Below are positions 4,393 to 48,443 of a stretch of 64,000 nucleotides of DNA, one piece after another. The DNA comes from an uncultured Anaerolineaceae bacterium (lineage in GTDB: Bacteria > Chloroflexota > Anaerolineae > Anaerolineales > UBA11579), in NCBI GenBank assembly GCA_964572455.1, contig CAZNFL010000004.1, forward strand, positions 3,970 through 67,969, written 5' to 3'. The translations under genes and the position numbers were made by a program. Position 1 is the stretch's first letter; the number at the start of each line of letters is the position of its first letter. A model generated the notes under the pieces. It ran no database searches. It worked only from the letters and a program-made list of their open reading frames with translations, and had not been told where the DNA came from.

Positions 4393-6960
4393 TTATACAA
4401 CCCGCACCATTGATCCCCTCGGCCCTTTTTCCACCTCGATGCGGTTGGGGAAGGCGTCCTTAAGCGCGTCGATGTGGGTGATCACCAGGATCTTGGCGAA
4501 GTCCTGACGCACCAGGCTGATCACCTCCACCAGGCGTTGGCGGCCGGCTTCGTCCTGGCTGCCGAAACCCTCGTCGACCACCAGGGTCTGCAGCCGGGCG
4601 CCGGCGCGCTGGGCGAGCACCTCAGACAGCGCCAGGCGGATGGCGAAGTTGATACGGAATGCTTCGCCGCCGGAGAACATTTCGTAGTCGCGCTCGCCGG
4701 CGCCATCGCTGATCTGGATATCCAGGGTCTCGCGCAGGTCGTCGCGCTTGCTGTCCTTGAATGGCCGCTGGGTCACGAAGCGGATGTTCATGCTGCCGGC
4801 GCTCAGGCGCTCGAGGATCTGGTTGGCCTTGCTTTCGATCTGCGGCAGGGCCTGCTCAATCAGCATGGCGGGCACTCCATCCTTGCCAAAGGCCCGCTCT
4901 AGAGCCTGGAATTGGGAGACCTGCCCGGCAAATGTTTCGCGTTGGCTCTCAATCTCCGTTTTGCGGGTACGCAGCGTTTCCAGCACGGCCACTTCCTGTT
5001 GGGCCGCCCCAAGCGCCTGGCGCACCTGGTTTTCCTTTTCTTGCGTATCCAGCATGGCCCGCTCAGCTTGCTCTAGGTCGGGCAAGCCCTCCCGCATGGG
5101 CTCCAGGGTCTGGGCGGCCTGCTGGTGGGCGGCTTCCTGGGCGGTCAGTTCCTTTTCCTGTGCGGCAATTTGCTTGGCCAGGTCCTTGATCTCCCGGTCC
5201 AGCGGCTTGGCCGCCGCGCGGGCTTGCTCCAGGGCGCGCATTTGCGCCTCGGCCGGGCGGGCCGCCAGCTCTTGTTTGCGGGCGGCGTCGTGCCGGGCGG
5301 CGTCGTAGCCGGTGGCCTTGAGATCGGCGTCGATCCTGCCCAGCTCACCGCGGGCTTCGGATGCGAAGCTTTCTACCTGCAGCGCTGCCTGGATCTCGGC
5401 CAGGCGCGGGGCGCGCTTCTCTTTCCAGCCTGCCTCATCGATTGAAACGTCGCCGATCCGTGTGCGCAGCTCTCCAGCCTTCGTATTGCTGGTTCGAAAG
5501 TTCGTATCTAATTGGCTTAATGCGGCCAATTCCTTTTCAAGTTTTTCGACTTGCTTGTCTACATCTTTGGCGCTTTTCACATTTGCGCGGTGTTTGTCAC
5601 CCATTTGGGTTCCCTCGCCGGTAAGTTCAGTGATCACTGAGTTGCGATGTTCCTCAGTCAGTGGCTGGCCGCAGGTTGGGCAGGTAGCTAATCCCTCCGT
5701 CTCTCTTACGCGCTTAATCTTTGCCTCTAGTTTTTTCATTTCTGCGTATAGCAATTTGTTTTGGGAATGGGCGTTGTCTTGGATTTTCTTTAAATTCTGC
5801 AGTTCCTTATCCTTCTCCACCCGACCAGCGAGATGCTTTTCCATTCTCTCGATCTCGCTAGTAATCTGCTTCAGTTCGCGCTCTTGTTCCACCTTATTGT
5901 TCAAGAGTGATTTGAGATTCTCGCTTTCATTAATTAAGCTCGTGAGTTCCGTTTCCAAACGGGCGCGCTCGGATTCGATAATAGCCACAGAGGCACCGCG
6001 CTTCATTTCCTGCCCGTGGAATTTGGCAGCCACGCTCTCTAGCGTTACGAGCTCTTCCCGCAGGGCCTGCCAGCCTGTATAGGCAGCTTCGATCTCTGCC
6101 GCTTTCCCGATCAGCCCTGCAGAGGCGGCTTGCTCGGCGCTGCGCTCCTCCAGCCGGGCGCGCTGCTCGGCCAACTGGGCCTGGGTGCGCTGCAGTTGGG
6201 CCGCCAGGGTGGCCACCAGCGCCTGCTGCTGCTGCACGGCGGCTGCCCGGCGGCGCACTTCCTCTAGCACGGCTTCTTGGGCAGCTCGGGATTTGCTTAG
6301 GTCTTGTAGTTGGGAATCCAGCTCTGTGAGGCGGGCCTTGCGCGTTTCTTCCTGGTCCAGTTCGTTGGCGATCTCTTGCAAGCGGCCCTGGAGCCCGGTG
6401 ATCTGATCTTCGACGCCCTTGCGCCGCGCCGCTGAACGGCCCCGATATTCTTCCCAGATCTCCAGCCCCAGCACGCTGCTTAGGATGCGCTTGCGGTCGG
6501 CGGGGCGTTGCTGGGTAAATTGGTCGGCCTTCCCTTGCAGGAAGAACGACGCGTTCACAAAGGTCTCGTAATCCAGGCGCAAGGTTTCCCGGATGCGCGC
6601 CTCCGTGTCGCGCGTGGCGCGTTCGGTGAGAGCTTTCCACTTGTCCTCGCCGGTCTGGATCTGGAATTCGAGGATGGTATTCTCCTCGCGCGGGAGAATG
6701 CGCTGCACGCGATATACGTTGCCTTCGTAGCTAAACGTAAATTCCACCTCGGCGGCTTTGACGTCCATGTGAGAATTGATCAACGAATCGCCGCTGTTGC
6801 GGGCCTTGCCGAACAGCGCGAAGGTGATCGCATCCAGCAGGGCGGATTTGCCCGCGCCGTTGGCGCCGGAGATGCAAGCCAGGTCGAACTTGGTGAAGTC
6901 CAGCTCTACGGGGTCGCGGTAGGAAAGGAAGCCGGCAATCGAAAGATGAATAGGGATCAT
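4393..6960 (-). CDS. sbcC: SbcC/Rad50-family SMC-like ATPase
   Basis: 855 aa. Walker A GANGAGKS. Long coiled coil with central zinc hook CPTCGQ. Signature FSGGEAF. Walker B LVVDEGFG. No sbcD/mre11 nuclease gene on either side. Confidence 0.8.
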   Translation of the reverse strand: MIPIHLSIAGFLSYRDPVELDFTKFDLACISGANGAGKSALLDAITFALFGKARNSGDSLINSHMDVKAAEVEFTFSYEGNVYRVQRILPREENTILEFQIQTGEDKWKALTERATRDTEARIRETLRLDYETFVNASFFLQGKADQFTQQRPADRKRILSSVLGLEIWEEYRGRSAARRKGVEDQITGLQGRLQEIANELDQEETRKARLTELDSQLQDLSKSRAAQEAVLEEVRRRAAAVQQQQALVATLAAQLQRTQAQLAEQRARLEERSAEQAASAGLIGKAAEIEAAYTGWQALREELVTLESVAAKFHGQEMKRGASVAIIESERARLETELTSLINESENLKSLLNNKVEQERELKQITSEIERMEKHLAGRVEKDKELQNLKKIQDNAHSQNKLLYAEMKKLEAKIKRVRETEGLATCPTCGQPLTEEHRNSVITELTGEGTQMGDKHRANVKSAKDVDKQVEKLEKELAALSQLDTNFRTSNTKAGELRTRIGDVSIDEAGWKEKRAPRLAEIQAALQVESFASEARGELGRIDADLKATGYDAARHDAARKQELAARPAEAQMRALEQARAAAKPLDREIKDLAKQIAAQEKELTAQEAAHQQAAQTLEPMREGLPDLEQAERAMLDTQEKENQVRQALGAAQQEVAVLETLRTRKTEIESQRETFAGQVSQFQALERAFGKDGVPAMLIEQALPQIESKANQILERLSAGSMNIRFVTQRPFKDSKRDDLRETLDIQISDGAGERDYEMFSGGEAFRINFAIRLALSEVLAQRAGARLQTLVVDEGFGSQDEAGRQRLVEVISLVRQDFAKILVITHIDALKDAFPNRIEVEKGPRGSMVRVV

Positions 6961-7047: not shown

Positions 7048-7467
7048 ATGCAAGTTGCAATCGATTGGAAACAGGGAATGAGTTTTAGTGGAAAAGTCGC
7101 AAACAGCTTAACCCTCGATTTGGGCGCCGAACCGGAGATAGGCGGGGCTGGGGATGGTTTTACGCCCATGGAGTTGTTTGCCCTTGGCCTGGGTGGTTGC
7201 ACCGGTATCGATGTGATCTCTATCCTGCACAAGAAACGCCAGGAAGTGACCGCTTTTGAAGTGCGCGTGAATACGCAGCGAGCGGAGGAGCACCCGCGAG
7301 TTTGGACCCAGGTGTTGCTGGAATATATCGTGACTGGCAAGAACATCGACCCCAAAGCTGTGGAGCGCGCCATCCAGCTTTCCTATGATAAATATTGCCC
7401 GGCTCAGAATATGCTTAAGAAAACTGTACGCATTGAATCGCGCTATGAGATAAAGGGAACTGCTTAG
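7048..7467 (+). CDS. OsmC-family peroxiredoxin-like protein
   Basis: 139 aa. Two conserved Cys contexts, GLGGCTG and DKYCPA. RBS GGAGGA 5 nt upstream. TATAAT at 7022-7027. Confidence 0.75.
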   Translation: MQVAIDWKQGMSFSGKVANSLTLDLGAEPEIGGAGDGFTPMELFALGLGGCTGIDVISILHKKRQEVTAFEVRVNTQRAEEHPRVWTQVLLEYIVTGKNIDPKAVERAIQLSYDKYCPAQNMLKKTVRIESRYEIKGTA

Positions 7468-7501: not shown

Positions 7502-9082
7502 TTAGTTATTGGCTGATTCTGTAGCATCCACTTGCGGGGTAGGCAGGGCCACGAACGGTGCCTGCGAAACGATGGCACTGGCTGCATCCGAGCAGGTGCA
7601 GGCCCGCACCACGTGGCCTTGGCGGGCCAACAGCCCGGCATAGGCCTCGCTGCCCTCCTGCGCCGTCCAATCTTCCATCACGAAAGGCAGCGCCCCAGCC
7701 GCCTCGACCCATTCCCCGTTGTATTTGCGCGCCACGTGAACATGGGAGCCGGTGGAGGAGCCGCCCTCGCAGGAGGGATGGCCTACCGGCTGGCCTGCCA
7801 GCAGTTGGGCGCCAAATTGCGCCCGTTCTTGTTTGGCTATGTGCAAATAAAACAGCACCCAGCCCGTGCGTTCGTCGCCGTCCCCGTCCAGATCCAAGAC
7901 CACGGTACCTACATCTGTGCGCACCACTGTGCCGTCCGCCATGGCAGTCGCCCAATGGTCGGAGGTCAGGCAGCCGCGTTTTTCCCCGGGGGCAAAATCC
8001 AGAGCCGCCCAAGGCTCACCCTGGCCCCATCCCGTGTGCGGGCCGCCGGTAAGCGCCCAGGCTTCTCCGGGCGGAAACGGCAGGCGCAGCTCCGGTTGCT
8101 CCAGGCTGCCCTGGATGTGAGGGATGTCGTTAGCCCAAGGGTTGCCGAACAGCGTCGCAAAGGTGAGGGCAAGACCTTCCGGCCCAATGGCGCTATCAAA
8201 GTTAGCGGCTGGCTCGGTGGTGTTGAAGAAAACCTGCAAAGATACCGAGGCGGCGTTTTGCCAGGGATCCGGCCGAAAGATGATCCCATCCGGCCGCTCG
8301 AACTCGATCAGTTTGCCATTGCGCCACTGGTAGTAGCCATTGTTGAGCTGGTTGGCCGCCCACACCAATTGCAAATAGACGCCTGGATTTCGATAGCTTT
8401 CGTGCCCCATGGGGTAAGTGCTCTTTGAGTCATCCAGCACTGGCTGGCTGAGCGCACCCGCTTGATACTCCAGAAGCGCCAGCAGCAGGCGCGGGCTGAC
8501 GCTGAAATTAGTGGCCACCAGGTCCACCAGTCCGGCGCCGGTACGCGTTCGGCCAGAAGCGTATGCGCGATAGTTCTTTAGCCAGCCGTCATGGGCGTCT
8601 ACGAAGGCCTGCGTATCGAAGTCAACCGCGGCGGGGCCGTTGACGAAGAGGCTGTCTGGGATGATCGCATAAGCTGATCCCCAAAAGGCGCGGTAATAGA
8701 TGGGGATGAGCATGGGCAGGCCGGGCGGCAGGGTCGTGGCGCTCTGGGGGATAATGGGATTGGCTTCAAGGATCTCGGCAATGCTGGTGTTGAAGCGCGC
8801 CGCCAACCCGATGAGGGTGTCTCCGGTCTGGGCGATATAGTCCACCAGTTGCCCGGGGTCGTAAAGCGGCCTGGCGGGTAAAGGGGTGGAGGTGATCACC
8901 GGCTGCGTCGCCGCCAGGCTGGGTGTGGCGATGGGTTCCTGCGAAATTACAGGTGAAGTAGGTGCGCAGGCGGAAAGGAACAAGGCAAGGGCGAGCAAGA
9001 CCATTGCGGACTGGCTTGAAGCTGAGCGGACCATCGCAACGATTATACGGACTCGAATGGAAACAAGCTGGAATATCGGCAT
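7502..9082 (-). CDS. secreted LysM-domain + M23A (LasA/beta-lytic protease-like) metallopeptidase, paralogue 1
   Basis: Lipobox LFLSAC (alternative ATG at 9034). LysM YIAQTGDTLIGLAARF. H-x12-D (GGPHTGWGQGEPWAALD). CEGGSSTGSHVH. Confidence 0.8.
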   Translation of the reverse strand: MPIFQLVSIRVRIIVAMVRSASSQSAMVLLALALFLSACAPTSPVISQEPIATPSLAATQPVITSTPLPARPLYDPGQLVDYIAQTGDTLIGLAARFNTSIAEILEANPIIPQSATTLPPGLPMLIPIYYRAFWGSAYAIIPDSLFVNGPAAVDFDTQAFVDAHDGWLKNYRAYASGRTRTGAGLVDLVATNFSVSPRLLLALLEYQAGALSQPVLDDSKSTYPMGHESYRNPGVYLQLVWAANQLNNGYYQWRNGKLIEFERPDGIIFRPDPWQNAASVSLQVFFNTTEPAANFDSAIGPEGLALTFATLFGNPWANDIPHIQGSLEQPELRLPFPPGEAWALTGGPHTGWGQGEPWAALDFAPGEKRGCLTSDHWATAMADGTVVRTDVGTVVLDLDGDGDERTGWVLFYLHIAKQERAQFGAQLLAGQPVGHPSCEGGSSTGSHVHVARKYNGEWVEAAGALPFVMEDWTAQEGSEAYAGLLARQGHVVRACTCSDAASAIVSQAPFVALPTPQVDATESANN

Positions 9083-9116
9083 TTCTTAGCTGGGACTCAG
9101 AAGAAAAAAAAGTAGG

Positions 9117-10613
9117 TCAGCGCGAGATCAGGAAATCGCCAAAGGCAGCGATGGCCTGGTCGAGGGTGGCTTCGAGCTCCTCATAGCTGGCCTCGTTTTT
9201 TCCCACGCCATGCAAGCTAAACATGTAAACATCGCCGTCGGGAAGCTCGATCAGGCCGCTATCCGCCACGACCCGCGGCCACACCACCAGGGAGCCGCGC
9301 TTGTTATAGATGATCGTCTTTGCCGGCAGGCGCGGCCGAAGCAGCCCCAGGCGCGTCTCGTCGCTCGGCGTATAAGCGGACAGCAAAGCCAGGATCTGGG
9401 CGCGGGCCTGGGACGAGACCCAGGCGCCGGCAAACAGAGCTTCGAACGTGACACTGAGCTCGGTGGCGGAGCTGCGGCGCGGGTCTATCTTTGTCTTCTG
9501 CAGCCCCCAACCAAGCCAGAGTTCATCCAACCACGCTTTCCCCAGGAAGTTCGTCAGGGTCTCGGTGGCTTCCTCTTCCGAATCGACGAGCATGGCTTGC
9601 AGCAATTGAGTATAGGTGCGCCCGCCGACCCCGTGTGAATCCAAATAGGAAGTCCAATCGGAGATGCTTTGCGCTTCCAACCAATGATAGAAGCCAAGCG
9701 CGATTGGCACCTTAATGGTGGACGCGGGGTGGAAGACAGCGTAGGGGTTGAATTGATAGAGCAGGGGCCCATCTATTTGCTGGATAGAAGCGTGCCACTT
9801 TCCGGCTGCAGTAAGCAGCAGCCCATCTAGGACGGCGCGTAGCTGCTGGCTGGCGGTGTCGCTGGGAAAAACCAGGCTGGTGCTATCTTTCACCCGCCAG
9901 ATGCGGAAGCCGCCTTTGCCGGTATTGCCCATTTGATTGCGCAGGCTGCGGTTGCCCCAGTTGGCTAACTGTCCGACTCCCGCTTGGTGTGGGTCGTAGA
10001 GCAGGCGCTCTTCGATGATGGTGCCGGTGGCGATGAAAAAATTGGAGACGGTGAAAGCGCGCCCGGCCTCGTCCACCCGGGTGACCACCAGCAGATGCTC
10101 AAAGGTGTCGCCCGGGGCGGCGTGCAAATAGACCAGGTCGCCGGCCAGCAGAGGGAAGGCGCTAAAGTCAAAAGTGGAAATCGGCTCCTCGAATTGAAGC
10201 CAATCGTAAAGATCGGCGGGGAAGGTATCATCCAGTGGAAGCAACGAAACCCGCGGGTTGAGCAGCCAAAAGTCGTGTGGCTTAGCCCAGCGGCCGAGCA
10301 ATCCCGCGCTTTGCAGGATAGCGATGGCCAAAGGGCCGCACATGGTGGAAGCATCTTCGTTGCGCCCTTCAATGAAATCAATGTCCAGGGCCACCTGGCG
10401 GGCGGAGTCAAGCTCGGGGGCGATGAAAGTGTGCGCCGCGACTTCCAGGCTTAACCGTTGGGCTGCTGTCAAGGGGCCAAGAGCCGCCACCGGTGGTGGC
10501 GGGCAGGCTGTTGCCGCGGTGTGCTGCAGCCAGCGGGGTGGAATGCCGAACGTGAAGGCTCCCAGCGAGGCTAGCTTTAGGAAGTCGCGCCGGGAAAATA
10601 AACGCTTATTCAT
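9117..10613 (-). CDS. Tat-exported two-domain protein: possible Cys-peptidase-like N-domain + class-A beta-lactamase-fold serine hydrolase C-domain
   Basis: 498 aa. Twin-arginine signal SRRDFLK. N-domain has STMCGPLAIA ... FEHLLVV. C-domain has SxxK (ASTIK) and a K-x-G-like NKRGS. The start overlaps the upstream gene by 8 nt. Confidence 0.6.
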   Translation of the reverse strand: MNKRLFSRRDFLKLASLGAFTFGIPPRWLQHTAATACPPPPVAALGPLTAAQRLSLEVAAHTFIAPELDSARQVALDIDFIEGRNEDASTMCGPLAIAILQSAGLLGRWAKPHDFWLLNPRVSLLPLDDTFPADLYDWLQFEEPISTFDFSAFPLLAGDLVYLHAAPGDTFEHLLVVTRVDEAGRAFTVSNFFIATGTIIEERLLYDPHQAGVGQLANWGNRSLRNQMGNTGKGGFRIWRVKDSTSLVFPSDTASQQLRAVLDGLLLTAAGKWHASIQQIDGPLLYQFNPYAVFHPASTIKVPIALGFYHWLEAQSISDWTSYLDSHGVGGRTYTQLLQAMLVDSEEEATETLTNFLGKAWLDELWLGWGLQKTKIDPRRSSATELSVTFEALFAGAWVSSQARAQILALLSAYTPSDETRLGLLRPRLPAKTIIYNKRGSLVVWPRVVADSGLIELPDGDVYMFSLHGVGKNEASYEELEATLDQAIAAFGDFLISR

Positions 10614-11550
10614 TTTCTTCTAGCTGCGACCAGATCGAATCGAGGACCTGCAGTGCGGTGAGGTTTCGATTTGGCCAGCCGGCGCGCAGGTCGACCGCGT
10701 TGGCAAAGTCATTAGGCGCCCAGGTGAGGTGGGCGCCGTCTTCCTGCAGGCCGCCGTTAGGCAGGTCCTGCATGGCGCGCCACAGGTTCCAGAAGGGCAG
10801 TTCATATTCGAGCGCCAGGGAATACAGGATGCGGTTGAGGCTGTGATCGCCTTCCAGGTTATCCGGCTTGCTGGCGATCACCGGCAATATGCCCTGGTCA
10901 ATGGTGTATTCGATGATCTTGCGCATGGCGCCTTCGAATTCAGCCACGCGATATTTGTCATTGGTACCCACCATGATCAGCGCCAGGCTGGGGTTGTTGA
11001 GCCTGAATTCGCAGGACAGCGGATGCTCGCCCGGCTCGCACAACGCCGGGTCGGCGCGGATGCTGGAGAGGATGGAGGCGGCGTTGAAGCCATTGTGCAC
11101 CGCCTGGCTAGTGCGGTTGTAGGAGCCGGAATAGAAATCTATAACGCCTTGCAAAGAGGAATAATCGCCCAAGCTGTAATCGCCCAGGTCGAACGGCCCC
11201 AGGAACCAGGAGGGCGTTCCGCCGCAATCACCGACCTTGGAGAAGGCGTGTGGGTTACGGCCTAAGGCTAAGCCTTGGGCGTAAATGTCCCGGGCGCGCC
11301 GGCTGAGCGCCTCTGGGACCACCGGTGCGGCCTTCCAAGCGTCCGCTTCCGGCGTGACGAACGGGGTGGCGCTGGGCTGCGGGCTGGCGGTCGGCGTTGG
11401 GGAGGCCATAGGCGACGCGGGTGCTATTGTTGGGGCGGAGGTTTGGGTGGCGGTGGCGAACGCGGGCTGTGGGCCGCAGGCGGCGAGCAGGCCGAGCGTG
11501 AAGGCGAGGAGGACCAGGAAAACCGTTTGCGGAAAAGTCATGAGAAGCAT
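10606..11550 (-). CDS. lipoprotein, SGNH/GDSL-hydrolase-like with GDC in place of GDS, paralogue 1
   Basis: 314 aa. Lipobox LLAAC. Block I FSKVGDCGG, block III MVGTNDKY, block V EDGAHLT. Confidence 0.55.
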   Translation of the reverse strand: MLLMTFPQTVFLVLLAFTLGLLAACGPQPAFATATQTSAPTIAPASPMASPTPTASPQPSATPFVTPEADAWKAAPVVPEALSRRARDIYAQGLALGRNPHAFSKVGDCGGTPSWFLGPFDLGDYSLGDYSSLQGVIDFYSGSYNRTSQAVHNGFNAASILSSIRADPALCEPGEHPLSCEFRLNNPSLALIMVGTNDKYRVAEFEGAMRKIIEYTIDQGILPVIASKPDNLEGDHSLNRILYSLALEYELPFWNLWRAMQDLPNGGLQEDGAHLTWAPNDFANAVDLRAGWPNRNLTALQVLDSIWSQLEENE

Positions 11551-11749
11551 GCGATTTTATCCTTAGATTCGCCTGTCCAACTGGTTGACAGCCTGTCCCA
11601 ATTTTCTATTCCAGACAGCATCCATGCTTAAATGATGATCCGGATCGACCTGCGCATCCTTGCCTCCTCCAAGATGATAGAAAGCCGTGTATCGCACTAT
11701 CAAGTATCAACTTTTGCCAGCCCAGCGAGAGTTCCGTTCCGAATACCTT

Positions 11750-11758
11750 CTTGTCAAG
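11750..11758. promoter_or_regulatory. 9-bp palindrome CTTGTCAAG (near-copy CTTGTCAAC at 11813-11821)
   Basis: Lies in the divergent control region between 11550(-) and 11897(+). The same 9-mer occurs at 50253, 55898 and 55966. Confidence 0.35.
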
Positions 11759-11896
11759 TTACCAGCAAGCCGTGTCTCGCGTTGGTTACTTGTTTCTTGG
11801 AAGACCCTGGCACTTGTCAACATGTAACGATGCTGTGTCTCGATGTTACATTACAACTTGGCCATCCAGCTGGGGACATGGGGAAAAACGGATACA

Positions 11897-12310
11897 ATGA
11901 CTCCCGCCATGAAAACCCAAACGCTAACTAAATTTCAATTGGTCATTGTCGCCTCCCTAGGCTTGCTGCTGGCCGCTTGCAGCCAGGGGGGCAGTTCGCC
12001 GGCCACCGTAGTGGAGGAGTACCTGGCTGCCCTGGTGGCGCGGGATGACGTGGCGGCGGTCAACCTGTCGTGCGCGGCCTGGGAGGCCAACGCCGAGGTG
12101 GAAGGCGCGTCTTTTGAAGGCGTGGAAGTCACGCTTGAGGATGTGGCTTGCACGGTAACGGAAGAAAGCGGGGAGACCGCCACGGTTTCCTGCACGGGGC
12201 TGATCGTGTTCAGCTATGCCGGCGGCGAAAACGAGCAAATCGACCTGAGTTCGCGCAATTACAGCGTGGTGCTTGAGGGCGGCGAATGGCGCATGTGTGG
12301 TTATAAATAA
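11897..12310 (+). CDS. small lipoprotein, function unknown
   Basis: Lipobox LLLAACSQ after MTPAMKTQTLTKFQLVIVASLG. The track start at 11843 lies inside an upstream hairpin, so ATG 11897 or 11909 is preferred. Confidence 0.6.
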   Translation: MTPAMKTQTLTKFQLVIVASLGLLLAACSQGGSSPATVVEEYLAALVARDDVAAVNLSCAAWEANAEVEGASFEGVEVTLEDVACTVTEESGETATVSCTGLIVFSYAGGENEQIDLSSRNYSVVLEGGEWRMCGYK

Positions 12311-12340
12311 GAATTTGCTATTCGTCAATTGTGACTGGTT

Positions 12341-13294
12341 GTGAGGCCGATCAATTTCGTATTTAGTTCGATAATTATCGCCGCCATCTGCACGGGCTGC
12401 CTGGCCGCTGCGGCCAGCGGGCTGGAGCCAGCTGCGGGCAGTGGACTTGCGTCTATCGAAGTCTCCACCCAAGCCGACCCGAGCCCGACATTGCAGGCTT
12501 TGATTCCCGCTCTGCAAGTGGACGTGGAGAAAGCGGACCCGACTCTCGCCCCAGCCAACTGGCAGGATTACCCGGTGGTGCCGCAACTCTCTCCGAGAGC
12601 CATTGAGATCTACCAGCAAGGTTTGCTGGTGGGCAACGACCCCCATCACTTTTCAAAGATCGGGGATTGCCAAAATATCACCACGTACTTCCTGAGCGCA
12701 TTCGAGGACCCGGATCTTTACACCCTGGGCGCAGATTACGCCGACCTGCAAGCCACCATCGATTGGTATTTCGGCTCTTTCTCGCGCGAAAGCCTGGCGG
12801 TAGCCGGCGGCCTCAACGTGGCGGCCGTGCTTTCGCCTGTCCGTGCTAACCGAGAGTTGTGTGAGCCGACCGAAAACTCGCTGGACTGCGAAGTGAGAGT
12901 CTACAATCCCAGCGTAGCCCTGGTGAGCTTCGAAGAAAATTGGAGCCAAAGCAGCCCTGAAGAATACGAAAAGCACCTGCGCACCATCATCGAATCCCTG
13001 ATCGCCGAGGGCGTGCTGCCCATCCTGGCCACCAAGGCGGACAACCTGGAGGGCGACCAGAGCATCAATGCCACCATCGCCAAACTGGCCACCGAGTACG
13101 AGATCCCGCTATGGAATTTTTGGCTGGCGGTGCAGCCTTTGCCCAGCCACGGGCTGCACGCGGACGGCTTTCACCTGACGCTGGCGGGCTCGCACTTCGA
13201 TGACCTGCTGCGCATGAAAAAGGCCTGGCCGTGGAGAAACTTGACCGCGCTGCAGGCGTTGGAAGCGGTGCGCTTAGGTGTATTGGGGGAATAA
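12341..13294 (+). CDS. SGNH-like protein with GDC motif, paralogue 2
   Basis: 317 aa, GTG start. FSKIGDCQN and ADGFHLT retained. Block III is degenerate (SFEENW). Collinear similarity to 10606..11550. Confidence 0.55.
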   Translation: MRPINFVFSSIIIAAICTGCLAAAASGLEPAAGSGLASIEVSTQADPSPTLQALIPALQVDVEKADPTLAPANWQDYPVVPQLSPRAIEIYQQGLLVGNDPHHFSKIGDCQNITTYFLSAFEDPDLYTLGADYADLQATIDWYFGSFSRESLAVAGGLNVAAVLSPVRANRELCEPTENSLDCEVRVYNPSVALVSFEENWSQSSPEEYEKHLRTIIESLIAEGVLPILATKADNLEGDQSINATIAKLATEYEIPLWNFWLAVQPLPSHGLHADGFHLTLAGSHFDDLLRMKKAWPWRNLTALQALEAVRLGVLGE

Positions 13295-13331
13295 CAATCG
13301 ATTAATCGATTAGTCAATTATTCGATTAGTC
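13294..13331. repeat. tandem array of palindromic octamer GATTAATC (about 5 units)
   Basis: (ac)AATC GATTAATC GATTAGTC AATTATTC GATTAGTC. Starts at the stop codon of 12341..13294, between convergent genes. Confidence 0.75.
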
Positions 13332-13354
13332 AAAAGACCTAATCCCGCGTAAAT

Positions 13355-14929
13355 TTAATACGGATCGTTGCTGGAGAGGGCGATGCGGGCGCCCACATTG
13401 CTGCAGGTGCAAGCCGTGACGACGGCGTCATCTCGCACTAAGGTCCCTAAATAAGGCGCGGCGCCGTTTTGCACCACCCAGCCGCTTAATTCAAAGGGGA
13501 TGGGGCCGCCGGCGCTGATCCACTCCCCATTGTATTTGCGGGCGATGTGTAAGTGGGTGGCCGTGGCGTTGCCGCCCTCGCAAGAGGGGTTGCCCAGGCG
13601 TTCGCCTTGATCCACCCAATCCCCCGTGCGGATGTGATCTTTGTTGGTGACATGCAAATATAGGATCACCCAACCGGTTTGCTCGTACCCATCTCCATCC
13701 ATGTCCACCACGATCAGCCCCGTGTCCGTGCGCACCACCAGGCCGGACGCCATGGCGGTGACCCAGGCGTCCGACGGCACACAGCCGGGGAGGCTGCTGC
13801 CTGGCGCAAAGTCCAGGGCGGCCAGGGCGCCTTCACGCGCCCAAGCGCCGTGTGGCCCGGAGGTGAAAGCCCAAAGCTGGCCAGAGCGGAAGGGCAGCCG
13901 CATGCTGGGCTGGGTCATTTCGGGGGGGAAGAGGGGCTCGACTTCGGCGGCGCGCACCCAAGGGTCAGGGAACATGCCCTTGCCATGGGTGAAAGCAAAG
14001 CCAAAATCCGGATCCATCTTTTCGAGCCAGGTATCGTGCGTGTAAAGCTGGCTGAAGAAATATTGCACCGCTACAGTGCCAGCGTTTAGGTCTGGTGCCA
14101 GGTGCAGAGTGCGACCGTCGGGGAAGACCAATTCCGTCAGACGACCTTCCCGCCAGCCGTAATAGCCTATCGTAAGCTCCCTCGCAGCCCAGGAAAGTTG
14201 CTTGTAAAGGCCTTTCTCCAGGGGATTGATAAATCCCAAAGGGTAATCCAGGTTGTTTTCCGGCAGGGGTTCGCCCAACACCCAATTGCTCTGTTCTTGG
14301 AGTACGGCCAGGAGCAGCCGGGGGTTTAGTGAATGTTCGTAGGCCACGCGGTCAATAATGCGCGCCCCACTAAACCAATCAGAGGGCAGATATTCGCGGT
14401 AGCTCGCCAGGTAGCCTCCCATTTGGCCCACGTAGCTGGCGCTGCTGAAACCGATCGTCGAGCGGGAATAGACCACTTCGCTATCCGGCAGCAAGCGATC
14501 GCTGGGTCCGATATCGCCTAAGACAGAAGGGATGCTGAGGATCTGCCCGGCATCGATCAGCCCGATAGAAATATCTTGCGGGGAGGCGATCTGTTCTGGG
14601 TTTACACCGAAGCGGATGGCCACAGAGGCCAACGTGTCACCCGATTGAGCCACATACACTGAGGGCGGCGCAGCCGTGGGCGATTGGGCCGACGTGGGGC
14701 TGGCCACCACAGTGGGTAAAAAAGTGGGCGTGGCAAAATCTGGCAATGGCGTTGAGTTGGGGATCAGCAGCGCATACAACGCGGTAGCAGATGCGCTCAG
14801 GTTCTGCTCAACCTGCTCGGTCTCCGCCAGGCTGCCTGGGGTAATGTAGTCAGTGCTGCATACCGCGGTGACGAAGGCGACCAAAAAAATGCAGCAGGTT
14901 AATCGTAAGGATCGAGAAAAATTCATCAA
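13355..14929 (-). CDS. secreted LysM + M23A (LasA-like) metallopeptidase, paralogue 2
   Basis: 524 aa. LysM YVAQSGDTLASVAIRF. SGPHGAWAREGALAALD. CEGGNATATHLH. Immediately follows paralogue 3. Confidence 0.8.
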   Translation of the reverse strand: MMNFSRSLRLTCCIFLVAFVTAVCSTDYITPGSLAETEQVEQNLSASATALYALLIPNSTPLPDFATPTFLPTVVASPTSAQSPTAAPPSVYVAQSGDTLASVAIRFGVNPEQIASPQDISIGLIDAGQILSIPSVLGDIGPSDRLLPDSEVVYSRSTIGFSSASYVGQMGGYLASYREYLPSDWFSGARIIDRVAYEHSLNPRLLLAVLQEQSNWVLGEPLPENNLDYPLGFINPLEKGLYKQLSWAARELTIGYYGWREGRLTELVFPDGRTLHLAPDLNAGTVAVQYFFSQLYTHDTWLEKMDPDFGFAFTHGKGMFPDPWVRAAEVEPLFPPEMTQPSMRLPFRSGQLWAFTSGPHGAWAREGALAALDFAPGSSLPGCVPSDAWVTAMASGLVVRTDTGLIVVDMDGDGYEQTGWVILYLHVTNKDHIRTGDWVDQGERLGNPSCEGGNATATHLHIARKYNGEWISAGGPIPFELSGWVVQNGAAPYLGTLVRDDAVVTACTCSNVGARIALSSNDPY

Positions 14930-16447
14930 TTATCGTTGGAGCATATTGGAGGGGTCGCGGCATTCGCAGGCTTCCACACTTAACCCGTCGCGCTGCATCA
15001 CGCCGTCATATATGATGCCATTACTGGTGGAGACCCAGCCATCGAGCACGAAAGGCAACCCGCCTGAGGCCGGGATCCATTCCCCATTATATCGGCGGGC
15101 CAAATGCAGATGGGTGGCGTTAGCCACACCACCTTCGCATGAAGGATGCCCAATGCGTTCGCCGGCCCGCACCGTGTGGCCGGCTTGCACGCGTTCTTCG
15201 GCAGCGATGTGCATGTAGAGAATCGTCCAGCCGGTTTGCTCGTATCCGTCGCCATCCAGGTCCTGTACCACGGCGCCGTTATCGGCGCGGGCGATGAGGC
15301 CATCCGCGGCGGCCACCACCCAATCTGTGCTCTGGTTGCAGCCCAGCATGTCTCCGCGCGGGGCGAAATCTAGCGCAGCCCAGGCAGAGCCGGTTCCCCA
15401 GCCGCCGTGCGGCCCACCGCTGAAGACCCAGGGCACGCCGTTCTCGAAGGGGAGCTGCATGCTTGGCTGCGCCAGATCGCCGGGCAGCAGTGGGTCGAAG
15501 GCAAAATCAAAGGGATAGCCGAACAGCCGGTTGTAGATGGCGAAGACGCCGCCCTCGGAAACGGCGTGGCGCCATTGGTCTTGCGGGTAGAGCAAAGAAA
15601 ATAAATATTGCATCCCGGCTGTGCCGGGGTTGATGGTGGGGGCGGCGGGGACAAAGCTGGCGTCGGTTAATTTCCAACCGGATGTCGCCCCGTTTTTCCA
15701 ATCGTAGTAGCCTTTGTTCAAGTTATCAGCCGCCCACGAAAGCTGGCGATAGAGCCCGCTGCGCCAGGAGTCGGTGACTCCCATGGCGAACTCGAGAGTG
15801 CTGCTGCGCGGATTGGGATCGCTTAGCCAGCCGCTCTGATATTCCAGAACGACCAGCAGCAATTTTGGATTCACTGAATATTCGCTGGCGACGCGCTGCA
15901 CGATCTGGGCGCCGTTCAAAAAGCTTTGGTCAACTTCTTCGCGGTGCTGTTTCAGGTAGCCGGGCTGCGCATCGATGAAAGCTGCCACGTCGAAGAACAA
16001 CGCAACCGGGCTGTTCACCAATTCGGAGTCGGGGATGATCTTGAAATCAGGCCCGACGGCGGCCGGGGAAAGAGGAGGGATAAGCAGCACTTGGCCCACT
16101 TCAAGCTGGTTGGGGTCAACCAGGCTGTTGGCAGCGATCAATTCCTCCAGGGTCACCCCAAATTTCAGCGCGATCGAACTGAGGAAATCGTAGGGCTGCA
16201 CCTGGTATTCGATGTAGTCGCCGCGCAGGGTGGGCAGGCTGTGAGCGCTGTCTGGGGTGGGCGAGACCACTGGCAGGTTTGGGTCGCGGGTGGGCGGCAG
16301 GGTGGGGGCCGGGATTGCCGCGCCCAGGGGGGTGTTTTCTGGGCTGGAGATCACGGGGGCAGGCGTAGCCCCGCCGACGGTCGTGGTGGGAAAATTGCAA
16401 GCCAGGATGGCGAATATCAGGACGAAAGGGGCAAGGGACTTACGCAT
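14930..16447 (-). CDS. secreted LysM + M23A (LasA-like) metallopeptidase, paralogue 3
   Basis: 505 aa. Lipobox AILAC. LysM YQVQPYDFLSSIALKF. GGPHGGWGTGSAWAALD. CEGGVANATHLH. Confidence 0.8.
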   Translation of the reverse strand: MRKSLAPFVLIFAILACNFPTTTVGGATPAPVISSPENTPLGAAIPAPTLPPTRDPNLPVVSPTPDSAHSLPTLRGDYIEYQVQPYDFLSSIALKFGVTLEELIAANSLVDPNQLEVGQVLLIPPLSPAAVGPDFKIIPDSELVNSPVALFFDVAAFIDAQPGYLKQHREEVDQSFLNGAQIVQRVASEYSVNPKLLLVVLEYQSGWLSDPNPRSSTLEFAMGVTDSWRSGLYRQLSWAADNLNKGYYDWKNGATSGWKLTDASFVPAAPTINPGTAGMQYLFSLLYPQDQWRHAVSEGGVFAIYNRLFGYPFDFAFDPLLPGDLAQPSMQLPFENGVPWVFSGGPHGGWGTGSAWAALDFAPRGDMLGCNQSTDWVVAAADGLIARADNGAVVQDLDGDGYEQTGWTILYMHIAAEERVQAGHTVRAGERIGHPSCEGGVANATHLHLARRYNGEWIPASGGLPFVLDGWVSTSNGIIYDGVMQRDGLSVEACECRDPSNMLQR

Positions 16448-16682
16448 AAGAGCGATCGATGGTCATTGATGACTGGTTGGTTATACAAAGGTTGCAAGGA
16501 ATAAGCCAGCCGTTTTCGTTAAGAATCCAACTTTGACTCAGGAGGTGCAACCGTCTACCTCTGCTGAACCTCCGCCCCAAATAGGGCATCTGCCCTTGGC
16601 TTTAAGGGACTTTGCCCCATGACGGGGCGGGCGTACTTGCTTACGATTGACTATATATCCTGCGCTGGTAAGGAGACGCCTT

Positions 16683-19427
16683 ATGGCCAAAACCTGGGTT
16701 TATTCGTTTAACGAAGTTGAGGCCGCTGAATCAGCGGTCGGTGGAGATTGGGACAATGTGCGCGCCCTGCTGGGTGGCAAAGGAGCCAACTTGGCGGATA
16801 TGACCCGGCTTGGCATTCCCGTGCCCCCCGGCTTTATTATCACGACCGAAGGCTGCAACGCTTATCAGCAGAACGATCAGCGCTTTCCCGCTGGGATGTG
16901 GGACCAGGTCCTGGCCCACATAAAGCGTGTAGAGGCCGCCACTGGCCGGGTTTTTGGTGGCGCCAGGAATCCCCTGCTGGTGTCCTGCCGCTCTGGAGCC
17001 AAATTCTCCATGCCCGGCATGATGGATACCGTCCTCAACATCGGGCTGAACGACGAGACAGTAAAGGGGATGATCGCCCTTACCGGCGATGAGCGCGCAG
17101 TCTATAACCTCTATCGCCGTCTGCTGCAAATGTTTGGCTCCGTGGTGTTAAATATCGCGGATGAGCCATTCGAAGGTCTTATTGAAGTCCAAAAGAAAAA
17201 GCGCAACGTCAAGCTGGATGTGGAATTAAAAGCACAGGACTGGAAAGAGCTTTGCACATTGTTCAAAGCCCTGGTTGAAAAAGAATACGGCGCCAGCTTC
17301 CCGCAGGACCCCTATAAGCAATTGAAGATGGCGGCCGAAGCCGTATTCAGATCCTGGAACGGCAAACGCGCCGTAGATTACCGCAACGCGGCCGGCATCT
17401 CTCACTCCCTGGGTACTGCGGTCAACGTGCAGACCATGGTGTTCGGCAACCTGGGCGAAGGCTCGGGCACCGGCGTCGCCTTCACCCGCGACCCGGCTAG
17501 CGGCGAACGCAAGCTCTATGGCGATTATTTGATCAATGCCCAGGGCGAAGACGTGGTTGCTGGTATTCGTAACACCAAGCCCATCGCCGAGTTGGAAAAG
17601 GAATTCCCTGAAAGTTATGCCGAATTTATCGGCATATGCAACAAGCTAGAAAAGCACTACAAGGACCTGCAGGATGTGGAGTTCACCATCCAGCAGGGCA
17701 GGCTATGGATGTTGCAAACCCGTACTGGTAAGCGCACGGCCAAGGCAGCGGTGCGCGCCGCCACCGAGATGGTGGACGAAGGGCTCATCACTCGCCAGGA
17801 AGCCGTGAAACGCGTCACCCCTGAACAGGTGGATATTTTACTGCACCCGCAATTTGAAGCCAGGTCGACCGCCGCCGCCCGTGAGAGCGGGCAGTTGTTG
17901 GCCCATGGCGTGAACGCCTCCCCCGGCGCGGCTGTCGGCCGCGTGTACTTCGACGCCACCAAGGCTGAGCACATGGCCAAGGACGAGCACCAGGACGTGA
18001 TCATGGTGCGGCCATTCACCCGCCCGGATGATGTGCACGGCATGCTGGCCGCCAAAGGGATCCTCACCAGCGAAGGCGGCGCCACCTCGCACGCCGCGGT
18101 GGTGGCCCGCCAGTTCGGCGTGCCTTGTGTGGTAGGCGCGTCCACATTGGAGATCGACCTGGAAAGCCGGCGCATGCGGGTAAACGACACGCAGATCCAA
18201 GAAGGTGATTGGATCTCGGTGGATGGAACCAACGGGGATGTGTTCGTTGGCAACCTGCCCACCGTGGTCCCCAAACTTGAGGAACAACATGAACTGCTCA
18301 GGCTGCTCAGTTGGGCAGATGAACTTGCCCAAGGCGAAAACGGCCGCGGCCTGCAGGTGTGGGCCAATGCCGATTACCCAGCGGATGCCCAGCGGGCGCG
18401 CAGCTACGGGGCCCGCGGCATTGGCCTGTGCCGCACCGAGCATATGTTCTTCGAACAAGAGCGCCTGCCGATCGTGCAGCGCATGATCCTTTCTGAGAGT
18501 GTGGCGGACCGCCGCGCCGCGTTGGACGAACTCCTGCCTTACCAGCAATCCGACTTCGAAGGCCTTTTCAGCGCCATGAACGGGCTACCGGTGGTCATCA
18601 GGCTGATTGACCCGCCATTACACGAGTTTCTCCCCAATATGGAAACCTTGATCGAGGAAGTTGCCACCCTTCGCGCCAACGGTAAACAGGACGGCCTGCC
18701 GGCCAAGGAAAAACTGCTGGGCCGGGTACGCGCCTTGCACGAAAGCAACCCCATGATGGGCATGCGCGGGGTGCGTCTCAGCATCGTAATGCCGGAGATC
18801 GTCGAAATGCAAGTGCGCGCCATCTTCCAGGCTGCCGTCGCAGTGACCAAAAGCGGAATAAAGCCCAAGCCTGAGGTCATGATCCCGCTGACCGCGCATC
18901 TGAATGAACTGAAGTTCATTCAGCCGCGCTTGGAGATCGTGGCGCGAGAGGTGATGAAGGCTTCCGGCGTAAAGATCGAATACAAATACGGCACCATGAT
19001 CGAAATCCCCAGGGCAGCCTTAACCGCCGGTGAAATCTCCCAGGTGGCAGAGTTCTTTTCCTTCGGAACCAATGATTTGACCCAGATGACCTACGGGTTC
19101 AGCCGGGATGACGCCGAAGGCAACTTCCTCTTGAAATATGTGGAGGAGGGTATCCTGCCAAACAATCCCTTTCAAACTATTGACCAGGCCGGCGTGGGCC
19201 GCCTGATGTCCATGGCAGTGGTGGAAGGACGCAAGACCCGGCCAGACCTTGAGGTTGGCATCTGCGGCGAGCATGGTGGCGATCCAGCTTCCATCGAATT
19301 TTGCCAGCGCATCGGCTTAAATTATGTGAGCTGCTCGCCTTTCCGCGTACCCATTGCGCGGCTGGCTGCCGCCCAGGCTACTTTGAAAAGCCGAGTTCAA
19401 TCGCCGAATGGCAAGGTGAAGCACTAG
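16683..19427 (+). CDS. ppdK: pyruvate, phosphate dikinase
   Basis: Phosphohistidine loop GGATSHAAVVARQFGVPCV. C-terminal FSFGTNDLTQMT and CGEHGGDP. RBS AAGGAG 7 nt before ATG 16683. The track start at 16647 is a TTG. Confidence 0.93.
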   Translation: MAKTWVYSFNEVEAAESAVGGDWDNVRALLGGKGANLADMTRLGIPVPPGFIITTEGCNAYQQNDQRFPAGMWDQVLAHIKRVEAATGRVFGGARNPLLVSCRSGAKFSMPGMMDTVLNIGLNDETVKGMIALTGDERAVYNLYRRLLQMFGSVVLNIADEPFEGLIEVQKKKRNVKLDVELKAQDWKELCTLFKALVEKEYGASFPQDPYKQLKMAAEAVFRSWNGKRAVDYRNAAGISHSLGTAVNVQTMVFGNLGEGSGTGVAFTRDPASGERKLYGDYLINAQGEDVVAGIRNTKPIAELEKEFPESYAEFIGICNKLEKHYKDLQDVEFTIQQGRLWMLQTRTGKRTAKAAVRAATEMVDEGLITRQEAVKRVTPEQVDILLHPQFEARSTAAARESGQLLAHGVNASPGAAVGRVYFDATKAEHMAKDEHQDVIMVRPFTRPDDVHGMLAAKGILTSEGGATSHAAVVARQFGVPCVVGASTLEIDLESRRMRVNDTQIQEGDWISVDGTNGDVFVGNLPTVVPKLEEQHELLRLLSWADELAQGENGRGLQVWANADYPADAQRARSYGARGIGLCRTEHMFFEQERLPIVQRMILSESVADRRAALDELLPYQQSDFEGLFSAMNGLPVVIRLIDPPLHEFLPNMETLIEEVATLRANGKQDGLPAKEKLLGRVRALHESNPMMGMRGVRLSIVMPEIVEMQVRAIFQAAVAVTKSGIKPKPEVMIPLTAHLNELKFIQPRLEIVAREVMKASGVKIEYKYGTMIEIPRAALTAGEISQVAEFFSFGTNDLTQMTYGFSRDDAEGNFLLKYVEEGILPNNPFQTIDQAGVGRLMSMAVVEGRKTRPDLEVGICGEHGGDPASIEFCQRIGLNYVSCSPFRVPIARLAAAQATLKSRVQSPNGKVKH

Positions 19428-47242: not shown

Positions 47243-48349
47243 TCACGGTTTGAACACCTCATCCAACGGCGGCAACTCGCCGCCGCAATTCTGCCGGTAC
47301 CAGGCCGCTTCGGCGGCGTAATTGTCTTTGGCAAACTCCTGGGCCGCATCGCCGATCTGGGCGGCCTGCTCCAGATTTAGCAGGGCGGCCGTATCCCAGT
47401 AGCGCGGCAGCAGCATCAACGGATCGTTGTACGCGCGCTCCTCTTCCCCCTGCGGGATCCAATTGAAGAGCAAGGGACCGCGCGAATGGATCGTGAAACC
47501 CAACTCGAAGCCGGCTTCGTGGGCCACCTGCACACCCAGTGACGTATAGTTGCCTCCCGGCCAGATGTAGGCCAGGGGAGTCTCGCCAAAATGCTCTTTC
47601 AAAACCGGGACGGAGCCCGCGATCTCCTCGCGCACAAGCTCCTCGGCCGTGTCCGCATTCAAATAAATGTGATTGAGCCCATGCGATTGAATGTCGAAAT
47701 ACCCAGTCTCATTCAGCCGCTCGATCCAGTCCCACAAAGACTCGCCCGGTAACCTTCCTTTGCGCTGGTCGGTGTCGCTTTGGGCGATCCACGCCAGCGT
47801 CAGCGTCCAGTCGTTCTTTTCAAGGATCGGCAGAAAGTAATCTTCGGCGGTGCCCGGCCGCCGGTCATCCAGGATCAGGATCATGGAACGGGCCGGAATT
47901 TTTGCGTTGTTCAACAGGAAATCCAGCAACTCTTCGGCAGTGATCGTCTCATACCCAAGGCCCTCAGCCAATCCGATGATTTCCTTGAACGTTTTGTAGT
48001 TTATGTCCTGGGATTGGGTAGGCGTCCCGCCTCCCTTGAGGATGCTGTGGAACATGATTGGCGCCACCACCGTCCCCGGCAGGGCGCCTGCGGGGTCCCA
48101 GCGCTGCTCCAGGGTTGCGCAACTGTCTTCGATATATTCCGCTGGCTCGATGCCGCCTCTCAAGACTTCGCTGTCAAAGGTCGCTGGCGGTGGGGCGGCG
48201 GGCTCTTGTGTCGGCGTGGAGCTTGGCGTTTGAGTTGGCTCTAATGGTTCGAGGGTGAGAGTCGTAGTTGGGCTGACGGTTTCGCTTGCAGGAACTTCCG
48301 CATTTGCCAACGACCCGCAGGAAACCAGCAGAAGTAACGCAAAGACCAT
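47243..48349 (-). CDS. polysaccharide deacetylase (NodB/CE4-like) lipoprotein
   Basis: About 368 aa from ATG 48349 (MVFALLLLVSCGS). LILDDRRPG, QSHGLNH and IWPGGNY motifs. The longer track ORF would overlap the upstream gene. Confidence 0.7.
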   Translation of the reverse strand: MVFALLLLVSCGSLANAEVPASETVSPTTTLTLEPLEPTQTPSSTPTQEPAAPPPATFDSEVLRGGIEPAEYIEDSCATLEQRWDPAGALPGTVVAPIMFHSILKGGGTPTQSQDINYKTFKEIIGLAEGLGYETITAEELLDFLLNNAKIPARSMILILDDRRPGTAEDYFLPILEKNDWTLTLAWIAQSDTDQRKGRLPGESLWDWIERLNETGYFDIQSHGLNHIYLNADTAEELVREEIAGSVPVLKEHFGETPLAYIWPGGNYTSLGVQVAHEAGFELGFTIHSRGPLLFNWIPQGEEERAYNDPLMLLPRYWDTAALLNLEQAAQIGDAAQEFAKDNYAAEAAWYRQNCGGELPPLDEVFKP

Positions 48350-48443
48350 CACTAACAGTTTTTGATTGCTTATAGGATGCAAGGGGCAATGCTCTGTCAA
48401 AAACGGCAACGCAGGATTATACAGCTTAGGGTTGGAGCTTGAG

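Follow-up and report, generated by a model that had tools for sequence, protein, structure and literature searches.

In a 64,000-nucleotide stretch of contig CAZNFL010000004.1 from an uncultured Anaerolineaceae bacterium (GCA_964572455.1; hereafter, the window), seven consecutive genes at positions 7502-16447 encode products that are all exported or lipid-anchored. The invariant element of this cluster is an ordered triplet of genes for LysM-containing M23A peptidases (M23c, M23b and M23a, in this order), and the gap between M23b and M23a is a variable slot for wall enzymes. In the window, this slot holds genes for a fusion protein with a twin-arginine (Tat) signal (FUS), two predicted SGNH-like proteins that carry Cys in a GDC motif (GDC1 and GDC2) and a small lipoprotein (LPP). 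Known protein families in new architectures make up the cluster, which, with other wall enzymes moving in and out of it, looks inherited rather than like a recently amplified set of weapons; on balance, a role in remodelling of the cell's own peptidoglycan appears probable. A sequence-only reading of this DNA had outlined the seven open reading frames (ORFs), and their coordinates, strands and protein types were all confirmed, as was the statement that every product is exported or lipid-anchored and comes from a wall-active or wall-modifying family, the signals being conserved across orthologues.

The M23 triplet and its variable slot

We compared the window with 15 related Anaerolineales loci, that is, 12 distinct loci with a full-length fusion gene, found through the genomic contexts of GDC homologues and a FUS scan of species-representative genomes, and three more distant ones (L027-L029). 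The order M23c, M23b, (GDC1), FUS, M23a, osmC(-), then sbcC, on one strand, is the same in all 12 fusion-bearing loci, with identities of 54-87%, and one-to-one orthologues of M23c, M23b and M23a are present in all 15. The triplet adjoins osmC in 14 of the 15 loci, sbcC was mapped in 13, and the neighbours are housekeeping genes (prfA, prmC and the adenine glycosylase gene). Given that the cluster recurs in 15 other loci, this arrangement is far beyond chance. The three distant loci keep the triplet and differ in the rest, which identifies the triplet as the invariant part and the slot as the variable one. In L027 (a 2.24-Mb contig), the triplet stands alone beside osmC and sbcC, with no fusion; in L028, a polysaccharide deacetylase gene abuts M23c, the fusion gene is inverted and divergent, and an MFS transporter gene is present; and in L029, an extra M23b-like copy (13044-14438) replaces the fusion in the variable slot.

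GDC1 is present in only 6 of the 12 fusion-bearing loci, scattered in patches over the concatenated tree, and is also absent from the three distant loci. The inverted LPP-GDC2 unit is confined to the window and its closest relatives, L001/L002 and L006; L003 and L004 are collinear with the window and lack this unit. The divergent intergenic region between GDC1 and LPP apparently arose when the inverted LPP-GDC2 unit was inserted into an ancestral one-strand cluster. Linkage of the cluster genes in related genomes, on which the sequence-only reading had made its proposal depend, is upheld for the M23 genes and the fusion, which stay clustered.

Several additional features of these loci involve the triplet and its surroundings. 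The extra copy in L029 matches residues 143-516 of M23b only, has no Pfam match on record and apparently lacks LysM. In L003, a gene for a 98-residue GIY-YIG domain protein and another for 86 residues lie between M23c and M23b (7832-8402), and this insertion may be a small mobile or homing-endonuclease-like element. Elsewhere in the window, a 431-residue ORF on the minus strand (47243-48538) encodes a product that is 39% identical to the Polysacc_deac_1 protein whose gene abuts M23c in L028, a possible second link, suggested by this similarity, of the M23 triplet to enzymes of wall-glycan (de)acylation.

The three M23 proteins share the same architecture, namely, a lipobox, a LysM domain, a domain of about 200 residues and a LasA-type M23A domain in which the catalytic residues are all intact. 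The paralogues are 38-41% identical to each other versus 55-87% (M23c), 50-77% (M23b) and 54-84% (M23a) among orthologues in the related loci, so that the triplication is old and each copy has been retained. LysM (PF01476) is found above the Pfam cutoff of 20.9 bits in all three proteins (27.3, 28.3 and, in M23c, 49.8 bits), whereas Peptidase_M23 (PF01551; cutoff 28.7) exceeds it in M23c (31.9 bits) and M23b (28.9 bits) and falls below it in M23a (20.6 bits). With a profile of 35 sequences, the C-terminal 180 residues are closest to M23A structures (pseudoalterin 6ik4, 8af1 and LasA 3it5; E values from 6e-11 to 2e-8), compared with 2e-5 or worse for lysostaphin and other M23B enzymes, and the structure matches begin at residue 329, opposite residues 4-7 of the mature crystallised M23A enzymes.

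Among the 35 orthologues and paralogues in this profile, H347, D360, H413, H448 and four Cys residues are invariant, and H446 is found in 34, the exception being H446N. The H347-x12-D360 spacing is that of the LasA-type zinc motif, H(x)12D, the HxH motif is H446xH448, and H413, 33 residues ahead of HxH, matches LasA His81 (PMC9662197). Because the zinc ligands and the catalytic His residues are conserved, M23a, M23b and M23c are probably active enzymes rather than degenerate LytM regulators. Among the export signals, canonical lipoboxes, defined as [LVI][ASTVI][GAS]C after the signal h-region, are kept across the orthologues of M23a (L-S/T-A-C), M23c (I/M-L-A-C), GDC1 and LPP, and all 13 FUS orthologues carry the twin-arginine motif SRR[DE]FL[KR] ahead of a hydrophobic stretch.

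The middle domain (residues 132-328 of M23c) lies between LysM and M23A, in the position of the LasA propeptide. Grouped at 90% identity, its family has at least 1,046 clusters, the members listed being Anaerolineales LysM-X-M23 proteins, and 1,081 representatives at 50% identity (E up to 0.001), where the matches listed share the same architecture. No PDB sequence match was found for the domain, including in a profile search. Folded alone from the 35 sequences, it yields a mostly helical model (predicted local distance difference test, pLDDT, 85.2; predicted template modelling score, pTM, 0.83), and nearly all of the 50 PDB matches listed by Foldseek are wall glycosidases of the lysozyme superfamily from families GH73 or GH23 (GH73 LytB, AtlE, Auto and FlgJ; GH23 chitinase and goose-type lysozymes; MltE, MltC and MltF). 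The lead to the lytic transglycosylase (SLT) enzymes was tested with five annotated SLT enzymes of E. coli K-12 against 85 background ORFs: Slt70, MltE and MltC ranked 1, 2 and 4, with a hypergeometric chance of about 4e-4, and MltD and MltF ranked low. An hhalign comparison with FlgJ (GH73) was negative; one with a five-sequence SLT profile aligned 87 columns (P 0.0018) and placed the QS of the middle domain opposite the SLT 'ES'.

In the alignments with MltE, MltC and MltF, the glutamate of 'ES' lies opposite position 73 of the middle domain, which is Gln in 32 of the 35 sequences, Glu in M23b of L011 only, and either Arg or Lys in the other two. Two positions upstream of this SLT-equivalent site, M23b has Gln, and the M23c and M23a lineages have Glu; the Glu of 'LEYQSGW' was considered as a lysozyme-type catalytic residue and rejected because three SLT alignments place the catalytic Glu opposite the next Gln. 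Taken together, the middle domain is likely to be a lysozyme/SLT-like fold that has diverged and no longer has the catalytic Glu, and, with Gln mostly in place of this Glu, the domain probably binds glycan rather than cleaving it. M23b of L011 (8842-9441), which comes from the most divergent fusion-bearing lineage, is the sole sequence with a canonical 'ES' (ILEFESHW), and its middle domain might still be catalytic. N-terminal pro-regions often block M23 active sites (PMC9662197), and M23A propeptides, which the enzymes need in order to fold, are taken off by other proteases (PMC8715609); by analogy, the middle domain may also serve in latency or folding.

The fusion, the GDC proteins and the layout of the cluster

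The assignments of the LysM-M23A, beta-lactamase-fold and SGNH-like proteins were all confirmed, albeit weakly by Pfam, with the refinement that the beta-lactamase-fold half of FUS is nearest to the DD-peptidase PBP-A. The C-terminal domain of FUS matches Beta-lactamase2 with 57.8 bits (cutoff 22), its best profile match is PBP-A (Tll2115; E 4e-13), and PBP-A is also the top Foldseek match, with 17-19% identity in the structural alignments and a pLDDT of 77.6 for the FUS model; a PDB fold search with full-length FUS was dominated by beta-lactamase-fold matches. PBP-A is a cyanobacterial DD-carboxy/endopeptidase of the class A beta-lactamase fold (PMC11189452). Across 13 FUS sequences, the SxxK motif S298-T-I-K301 is invariant, and S345-E-E and K438-R-G, likewise invariant, replace the canonical SDN and KTG; the omega-loop, whose Glu166 sets true beta-lactamases apart from PBPs, is modelled poorly in FUS, with pLDDT below 50 at residues 374-383. 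The N-terminal domain contains C92 (STMCGPL) followed by H173 (GDTFEH), in papain-like order, both invariant in the same 13 sequences. In a viral fold library, this domain has weak CHAP matches (E 0.014), and its His motif aligns with that of the phage lysin 5d74 (E 0.16). The clearest pointer to its identity comes from its relatives, five of which were scanned and all match Amidase_6, though weakly: P0487 (46% identical) does so with 26.0 bits, above the cutoff of 23.2, and the other four with E values of 0.004-0.09. From these motifs and matches, the best reading of FUS is a DD-peptidase joined to an amidase or peptidase of the NlpC/P60 clan. The N-terminal domain also occurs as a stand-alone protein of about 295 residues in Chloroflexota (P0468-P0508), with instances on contigs of 270 and 329 kb. 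In a single-sequence PDB search, there was no match for FUS, GDC1 or LPP.

At least 1,830 homologues of GDC1 exist, the majority in metagenome-assembled genomes of Anaerolineales and other Chloroflexota. The GDC motif that the sequence-only reading had pointed out is real: among the 120 homologues listed, block I is GDC in 113 and GDS in 4, and both copies in the window carry GDC, with no Ser nucleophile in block I. Block III, GxND, and block V, DxxH, are conserved in the GDC1 family, and E. coli TesA can be aligned with the family profile over blocks III to V (E 3e-4), with GTND and DGAH of GDC1 opposite GGND and DGIH of TesA; the scores with Lipase_GDSL_2 (PF13472) are 22.4 and 20.3 bits, below the cutoff of 32.9. 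GDC2, an older paralogue of GDC1, is 43-45% identical to it, and its block III is EENW, with the Asn kept. By all these signatures, GDC1 and GDC2 are predicted to adopt an SGNH-like fold with Cys replacing the nucleophilic Ser.

Outside the M23 clusters, operons that combine MBOAT, SGNH-like and GDC genes, in some cases followed by those for an acyl carrier protein (ACP) and a fatty-acyl-AMP ligase (FAAL), were found in three of the four contexts sampled (L036, L037 and L038). In L037 (3954-9919), the order is LPP-like, DltB-like MBOAT (TIGR04091, E 5e-62), GDS-type SGNH-like, GDC, ACP and FAAL; in L038 (3903-8976), it is LPP-like, MBOAT, SGNH-like, GDC (DGAH) and GDC (DGFH); and the L036 operon starts in the same manner, with an ACP gene after GDC. 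Both types already adjoin in the L038 operon; the GDC1-like and GDC2-like copies are old paralogues and not products of local duplication. With the lipoproteins of about 130 residues encoded just upstream of MBOAT in L036-L038, LPP of the window shares 39-47% identity (E 1e-27 to 1e-35). Since the relatives encode both proteins in DltB-like MBOAT operons, GDC and LPP would belong functionally to an acyl-transfer system. The MBOAT and SGNH genes of L036 (4591-6973) and M23c of L013 (6865-8378) are each matched as two or three separate frames or pieces; these broken frames are probably assembly indels and not true pseudogenes.

MBOAT-SGNH pairs are a general device for acylation of envelope polymers (PMC12148441). 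A 2022 review of SGNH proteins names cysteine for disulfide bonds only (PMC9487903), and the sole Cys-type precedent that we found in the literature is TviD, an SGNH-like O-acetyltransferase with Cys in block I (PMC8760489). No description of a Dlt-like operon with LPP, GDC and FAAL genes was found in the literature searched.

The layout of the cluster is given in Table 1. GDC1 and FUS overlap by 8 nucleotides, and M23c abuts M23b with zero gap. The G+C content of 0.56-0.62 does not differ from that of the flanking DNA; the cluster is, therefore, no compositional island, contrary to its initial designation. The genes are oriented as described when three transcription units were proposed. In a scan for promoter and terminator consensus sequences, the number of sites was not above that in shuffled sequence, and a sigma-70-like site in the GDC1/LPP intergenic region (11703-11674, minus strand) likewise does not exceed the shuffled expectation, so the boundaries of the units are drawn from gene orientation only. 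The cluster contains no regulator or immunity gene and no dedicated secretion system. In 13 related loci, as in the window, the gene for the SbcC/Rad50-like ATPase, without an adjacent sbcD, adjoins a divergent osmC, and the adenine glycosylase, prfA and prmC genes lie beyond these two in the related loci.

Table 1. Genes and other features of the cluster and its flanks (window positions)
Feature	Position	Strand	Signals, domains and motifs
sbcC	4393-6960	minus	
osmC	7048-7467		
M23a	7502-9082	minus	Lipobox LSAC; LysM; middle domain 8093-8680; LasA-type M23A domain
FUS (Tat fusion)	9117-10613	minus	Tat signal SRRDFLK; Amidase_6-like Cys/His domain 9858-10478; PBP-A-like domain ~9219-9764
GDC1	10606-11550	minus	Lipoprotein (LAAC), SGNH-like: GDC Cys109, GTND N197, D271-G-A-H274
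GDC1/LPP intergenic region, divergent	11551-11842		From the gene map
LPP (small lipoprotein)	11843-12310 (likelier ATG 11897 or 11909)	plus	Lipobox LLAAC
GDC2	12341-13294	plus	GDC; degenerate block III EENW; DGFH
M23b	13355-14929	minus	Same architecture as M23a and M23c; middle domain 13907-14509; non-canonical T-x-V-C
M23c	14930-16447	minus	Lipobox ILAC; LysM ~16076-16207; middle domain 15464-16054; M23A domain ~14933-15463
Pyruvate phosphate dikinase gene	16647-19427		

Proposed role of the locus

The cluster had been interpreted as either an autolysin or remodelling toolkit or a bacteriolytic arsenal, and the comparison of the loci favours the former. We propose, with moderate confidence, that this is a vertically inherited locus for remodelling of the cell's own peptidoglycan, in which cross-links are cleaved as a filamentous cell grows or processes its septa. 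The reasons are the vertical inheritance among housekeeping genes, the retention of three old paralogues, the intact active sites, the lipid anchors, and the presence of LysM together with a glycan-binding-like domain. From what the analysis shows, namely, the genes present, their motifs, their resemblances in fold, their orthology and their synteny, we infer the following scheme of topology, substrates, latency and physiological role. M23a, M23b and M23c would be three non-redundant endopeptidases, each tethered through a lipid anchor and a Pro/Thr-rich linker to the cytoplasmic membrane on its outer face; LysM and the lysozyme/SLT-like middle domain would dock them on glycan strands, and the LasA-type zinc site would cut the peptide cross-links; the middle domain, in its propeptide position, may also keep the enzyme latent or help it fold. 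FUS, as an Amidase_6-like hydrolase joined to a PBP-A-like DD-carboxy/endopeptidase, would trim or cleave stem peptides. GDC1 and the LPP-GDC2 unit would contribute Cys-nucleophile acyl-transfer or esterase proteins borrowed from an MBOAT/ACP/acyl-AMP-ligase system of envelope acylation; these proteins would probably add ester-linked acyl groups to a wall polymer, or remove them, and so tune the access of the hydrolases.

Several observations weigh against this proposal or parts of it. Those M23A enzymes that have been characterised act as secreted exoenzymes, bacteriolytic or elastinolytic, rather than as housekeeping autolysins (PMC8715609, PMC9662197), and, if the middle domain is removed like the LasA propeptide, the catalytic domain would lose both the anchor and LysM, which would fit an exoenzyme. 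Two of the lipid anchors deviate from the canonical pattern: in M23b, the Cys is invariant across orthologues in the non-canonical context T-x-V-C, and in GDC2, the lipobox (L/C-T-G-C) is CTGC in the window and LTGC in L001. Even with E allowed up to 10, Pfam gives no match to the middle domain in the 35 sequences, its Foldseek scores are weak (best E 0.066, TM score at most 0.48), and the hhalign probability for SLT is only 15%. The N-terminal domain of the window FUS itself matches Amidase_6 at E 0.23 only, no MBOAT, ACP or FAAL gene is present in the window, and the operon structure of the cluster is read from orientation only.

An alternative that we regard as unlikely is a bacteriolytic or necromass-digesting arsenal, in which M23A zymogens are processed by another protease, perhaps the Cys/His domain of FUS, that removes LysM and the middle region, the released LasA-like domains lyse neighbours or dead cells, and the DD-peptidase and esterase-like proteins help dismantle foreign walls. 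The nearest solved relatives (6ik4, 3it5 and 8af1) are, indeed, secreted lytic enzymes, and the M23A domain starts exactly where the mature enzymes start, behind a region of about 200 residues in the propeptide position. Moreover, M23A maturation needs a foreign protease (PMC8715609), the cluster itself encodes a Cys/His hydrolase domain, and regulator and immunity genes are not present there. However, maturation would discard LysM and the glycan-binding-like domain, and the lipid anchors are conserved; the housekeeping synteny, with one-to-one orthologues in 15 loci, is the pattern of a core function and not of variable weaponry; and the cluster encodes neither a dedicated secretion system nor an immunity protein. 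A further point against the arsenal is L027, which has the triplet but no fusion; for this reason, the Cys/His domain as the maturation protease for the M23A zymogens is a speculative idea.

It is quite improbable that the LysM-M23 proteins are non-catalytic regulators, that is, degenerate LytM factors of the EnvC, NlpD or DipM type that activate amidases. The source annotations, 'MepM / murein hydrolase activator NlpD', point in this direction, as do weak partial NCBIfam matches to DipM, NlpD-type and ActS models, mainly over LysM. These matches, however, reach 16-34 bits against cutoffs of 341-900, with nothing specific in NCBIfam for any of the cluster proteins, and the M23 proteins keep the zinc ligands and catalytic His in 35 of 35 sequences (with the single H446N), whereas degenerate LytM factors lack them (PMC9662197).

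Finally, the recurrence of two protein types within 9 kb in diverging and converging units had suggested an amplified module, an 'esterase-like + endopeptidase' pair duplicated locally, which is very improbable given that the M23 genes, with their divergence and an orthologue of each copy in every locus, are ancient paralogues that predate the clade, that GDC1 is missing from half of the 12 fusion-bearing loci and from the three distant ones, and that the GDC1 and GDC2 types stand side by side in an unrelated MBOAT operon, to whose system the LPP and GDC pair belongs.

Filamentous Anaerolineae are abundant in sediments, digesters and sludge, and, to our knowledge, their cell envelope is poorly understood; the locus supplies conserved candidate enzymes for wall growth and cell separation in Anaerolineae. 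LasA-type M23A peptidases appear here in an apparent housekeeping, membrane-tethered role and in a new domain architecture, and the middle domain, with a confident structural model and no Pfam model, comprises about 1,080 clusters at 50% identity. The large family of SGNH-like proteins with Cys for Ser, tied to Dlt-like MBOAT, could widen the range of MBOAT-SGNH acyl-transfer mechanisms and reveal a new envelope modification. A more ambitious combination, which we put forward only tentatively and consider somewhat doubtful as a whole, is that GDC and the lipoprotein of about 130 residues form a new Cys-nucleophile SGNH branch in the MBOAT pathway and that, in addition, the M23 triplet, with its fixed order, is a wall-splitting machine. 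If so, the GDC branch would be the extracytoplasmic arm of a DltB-like MBOAT/ACP/FAAL pathway, implying a new (fatty-)acyl ester modification of an envelope polymer in Chloroflexota, and the triplet would be a dedicated multi-subunit wall splitter of filamentous Anaerolineales in which a dead lysozyme-like domain serves as the glycan-strand reader and the latch of M23A.

Relation to known systems

The M23 proteins resemble LasA, beta-lytic protease and pseudoalterin, the M23A enzymes, in the H(x)12D and HxH motifs, the extra His about 33 residues upstream, the Cys pairs and the preceding region of about 200 residues. Unlike the known enzymes, which are freely secreted, lytic and proteobacterial (PMC8715609), those in the window are lipoproteins with an N-terminal LysM and a lysozyme/SLT-like preceding region, encoded as three fixed paralogues in a housekeeping locus of Chloroflexota. 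The middle domain, in turn, resembles SLT/GH23 enzymes (MltE, MltC and Slt70) and GH73 enzymes in its fold matches and in the order of motifs, VNPxLLLAxLxxQS, GLYxQL and NAG, and differs from them in having Gln for the catalytic Glu in 32 of the 35 sequences, no Pfam match and weak scores. Glycan-directed and peptide-cutting domains are also combined in CwlT (muramidase and NlpC/P60), as in the M23 triplet, and ShyA is an autoinhibited M23 endopeptidase in which the N-terminal domain controls the M23 site; in contrast to the M23 proteins of the window, CwlT and ShyA have other domain families in another order and no triplet organisation.

FUS shares with PBP-A (Tll2115 of Thermosynechococcus) the SxxK motif and is matched to it best by both profile and fold, but differs in that SDN and KTG are replaced by SEE and KRG, in its Tat export and in its N-terminal Amidase_6-like fusion, at the low structural identity given above. 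The GDC proteins can be likened, by description only, to TviD of the Vi-antigen system, which is SGNH-like and requires both its block I Cys and its block V His for activity (PMC8760489); TviD, however, has Gly-Ser-Cys, lacks blocks II and III and is a large TPR protein of Proteobacteria. With the MBOAT-SGNH systems (PatA/PatB, DltB/DltD and AlgI/AlgJ/AlgX), the relatives of the GDC genes share the genomic setting, directly following genes for MBOAT and GDS-type SGNH-like proteins and lying near those for ACP and an adenylating enzyme, and the GDC proteins keep SGNH blocks III and V. They depart from these systems in the Cys for Ser, in a FAAL-like enzyme rather than DltA, in the lipoprotein partner of about 130 residues and, in the window, in the detachment of the GDC genes from MBOAT and their embedding in an M23 cluster.

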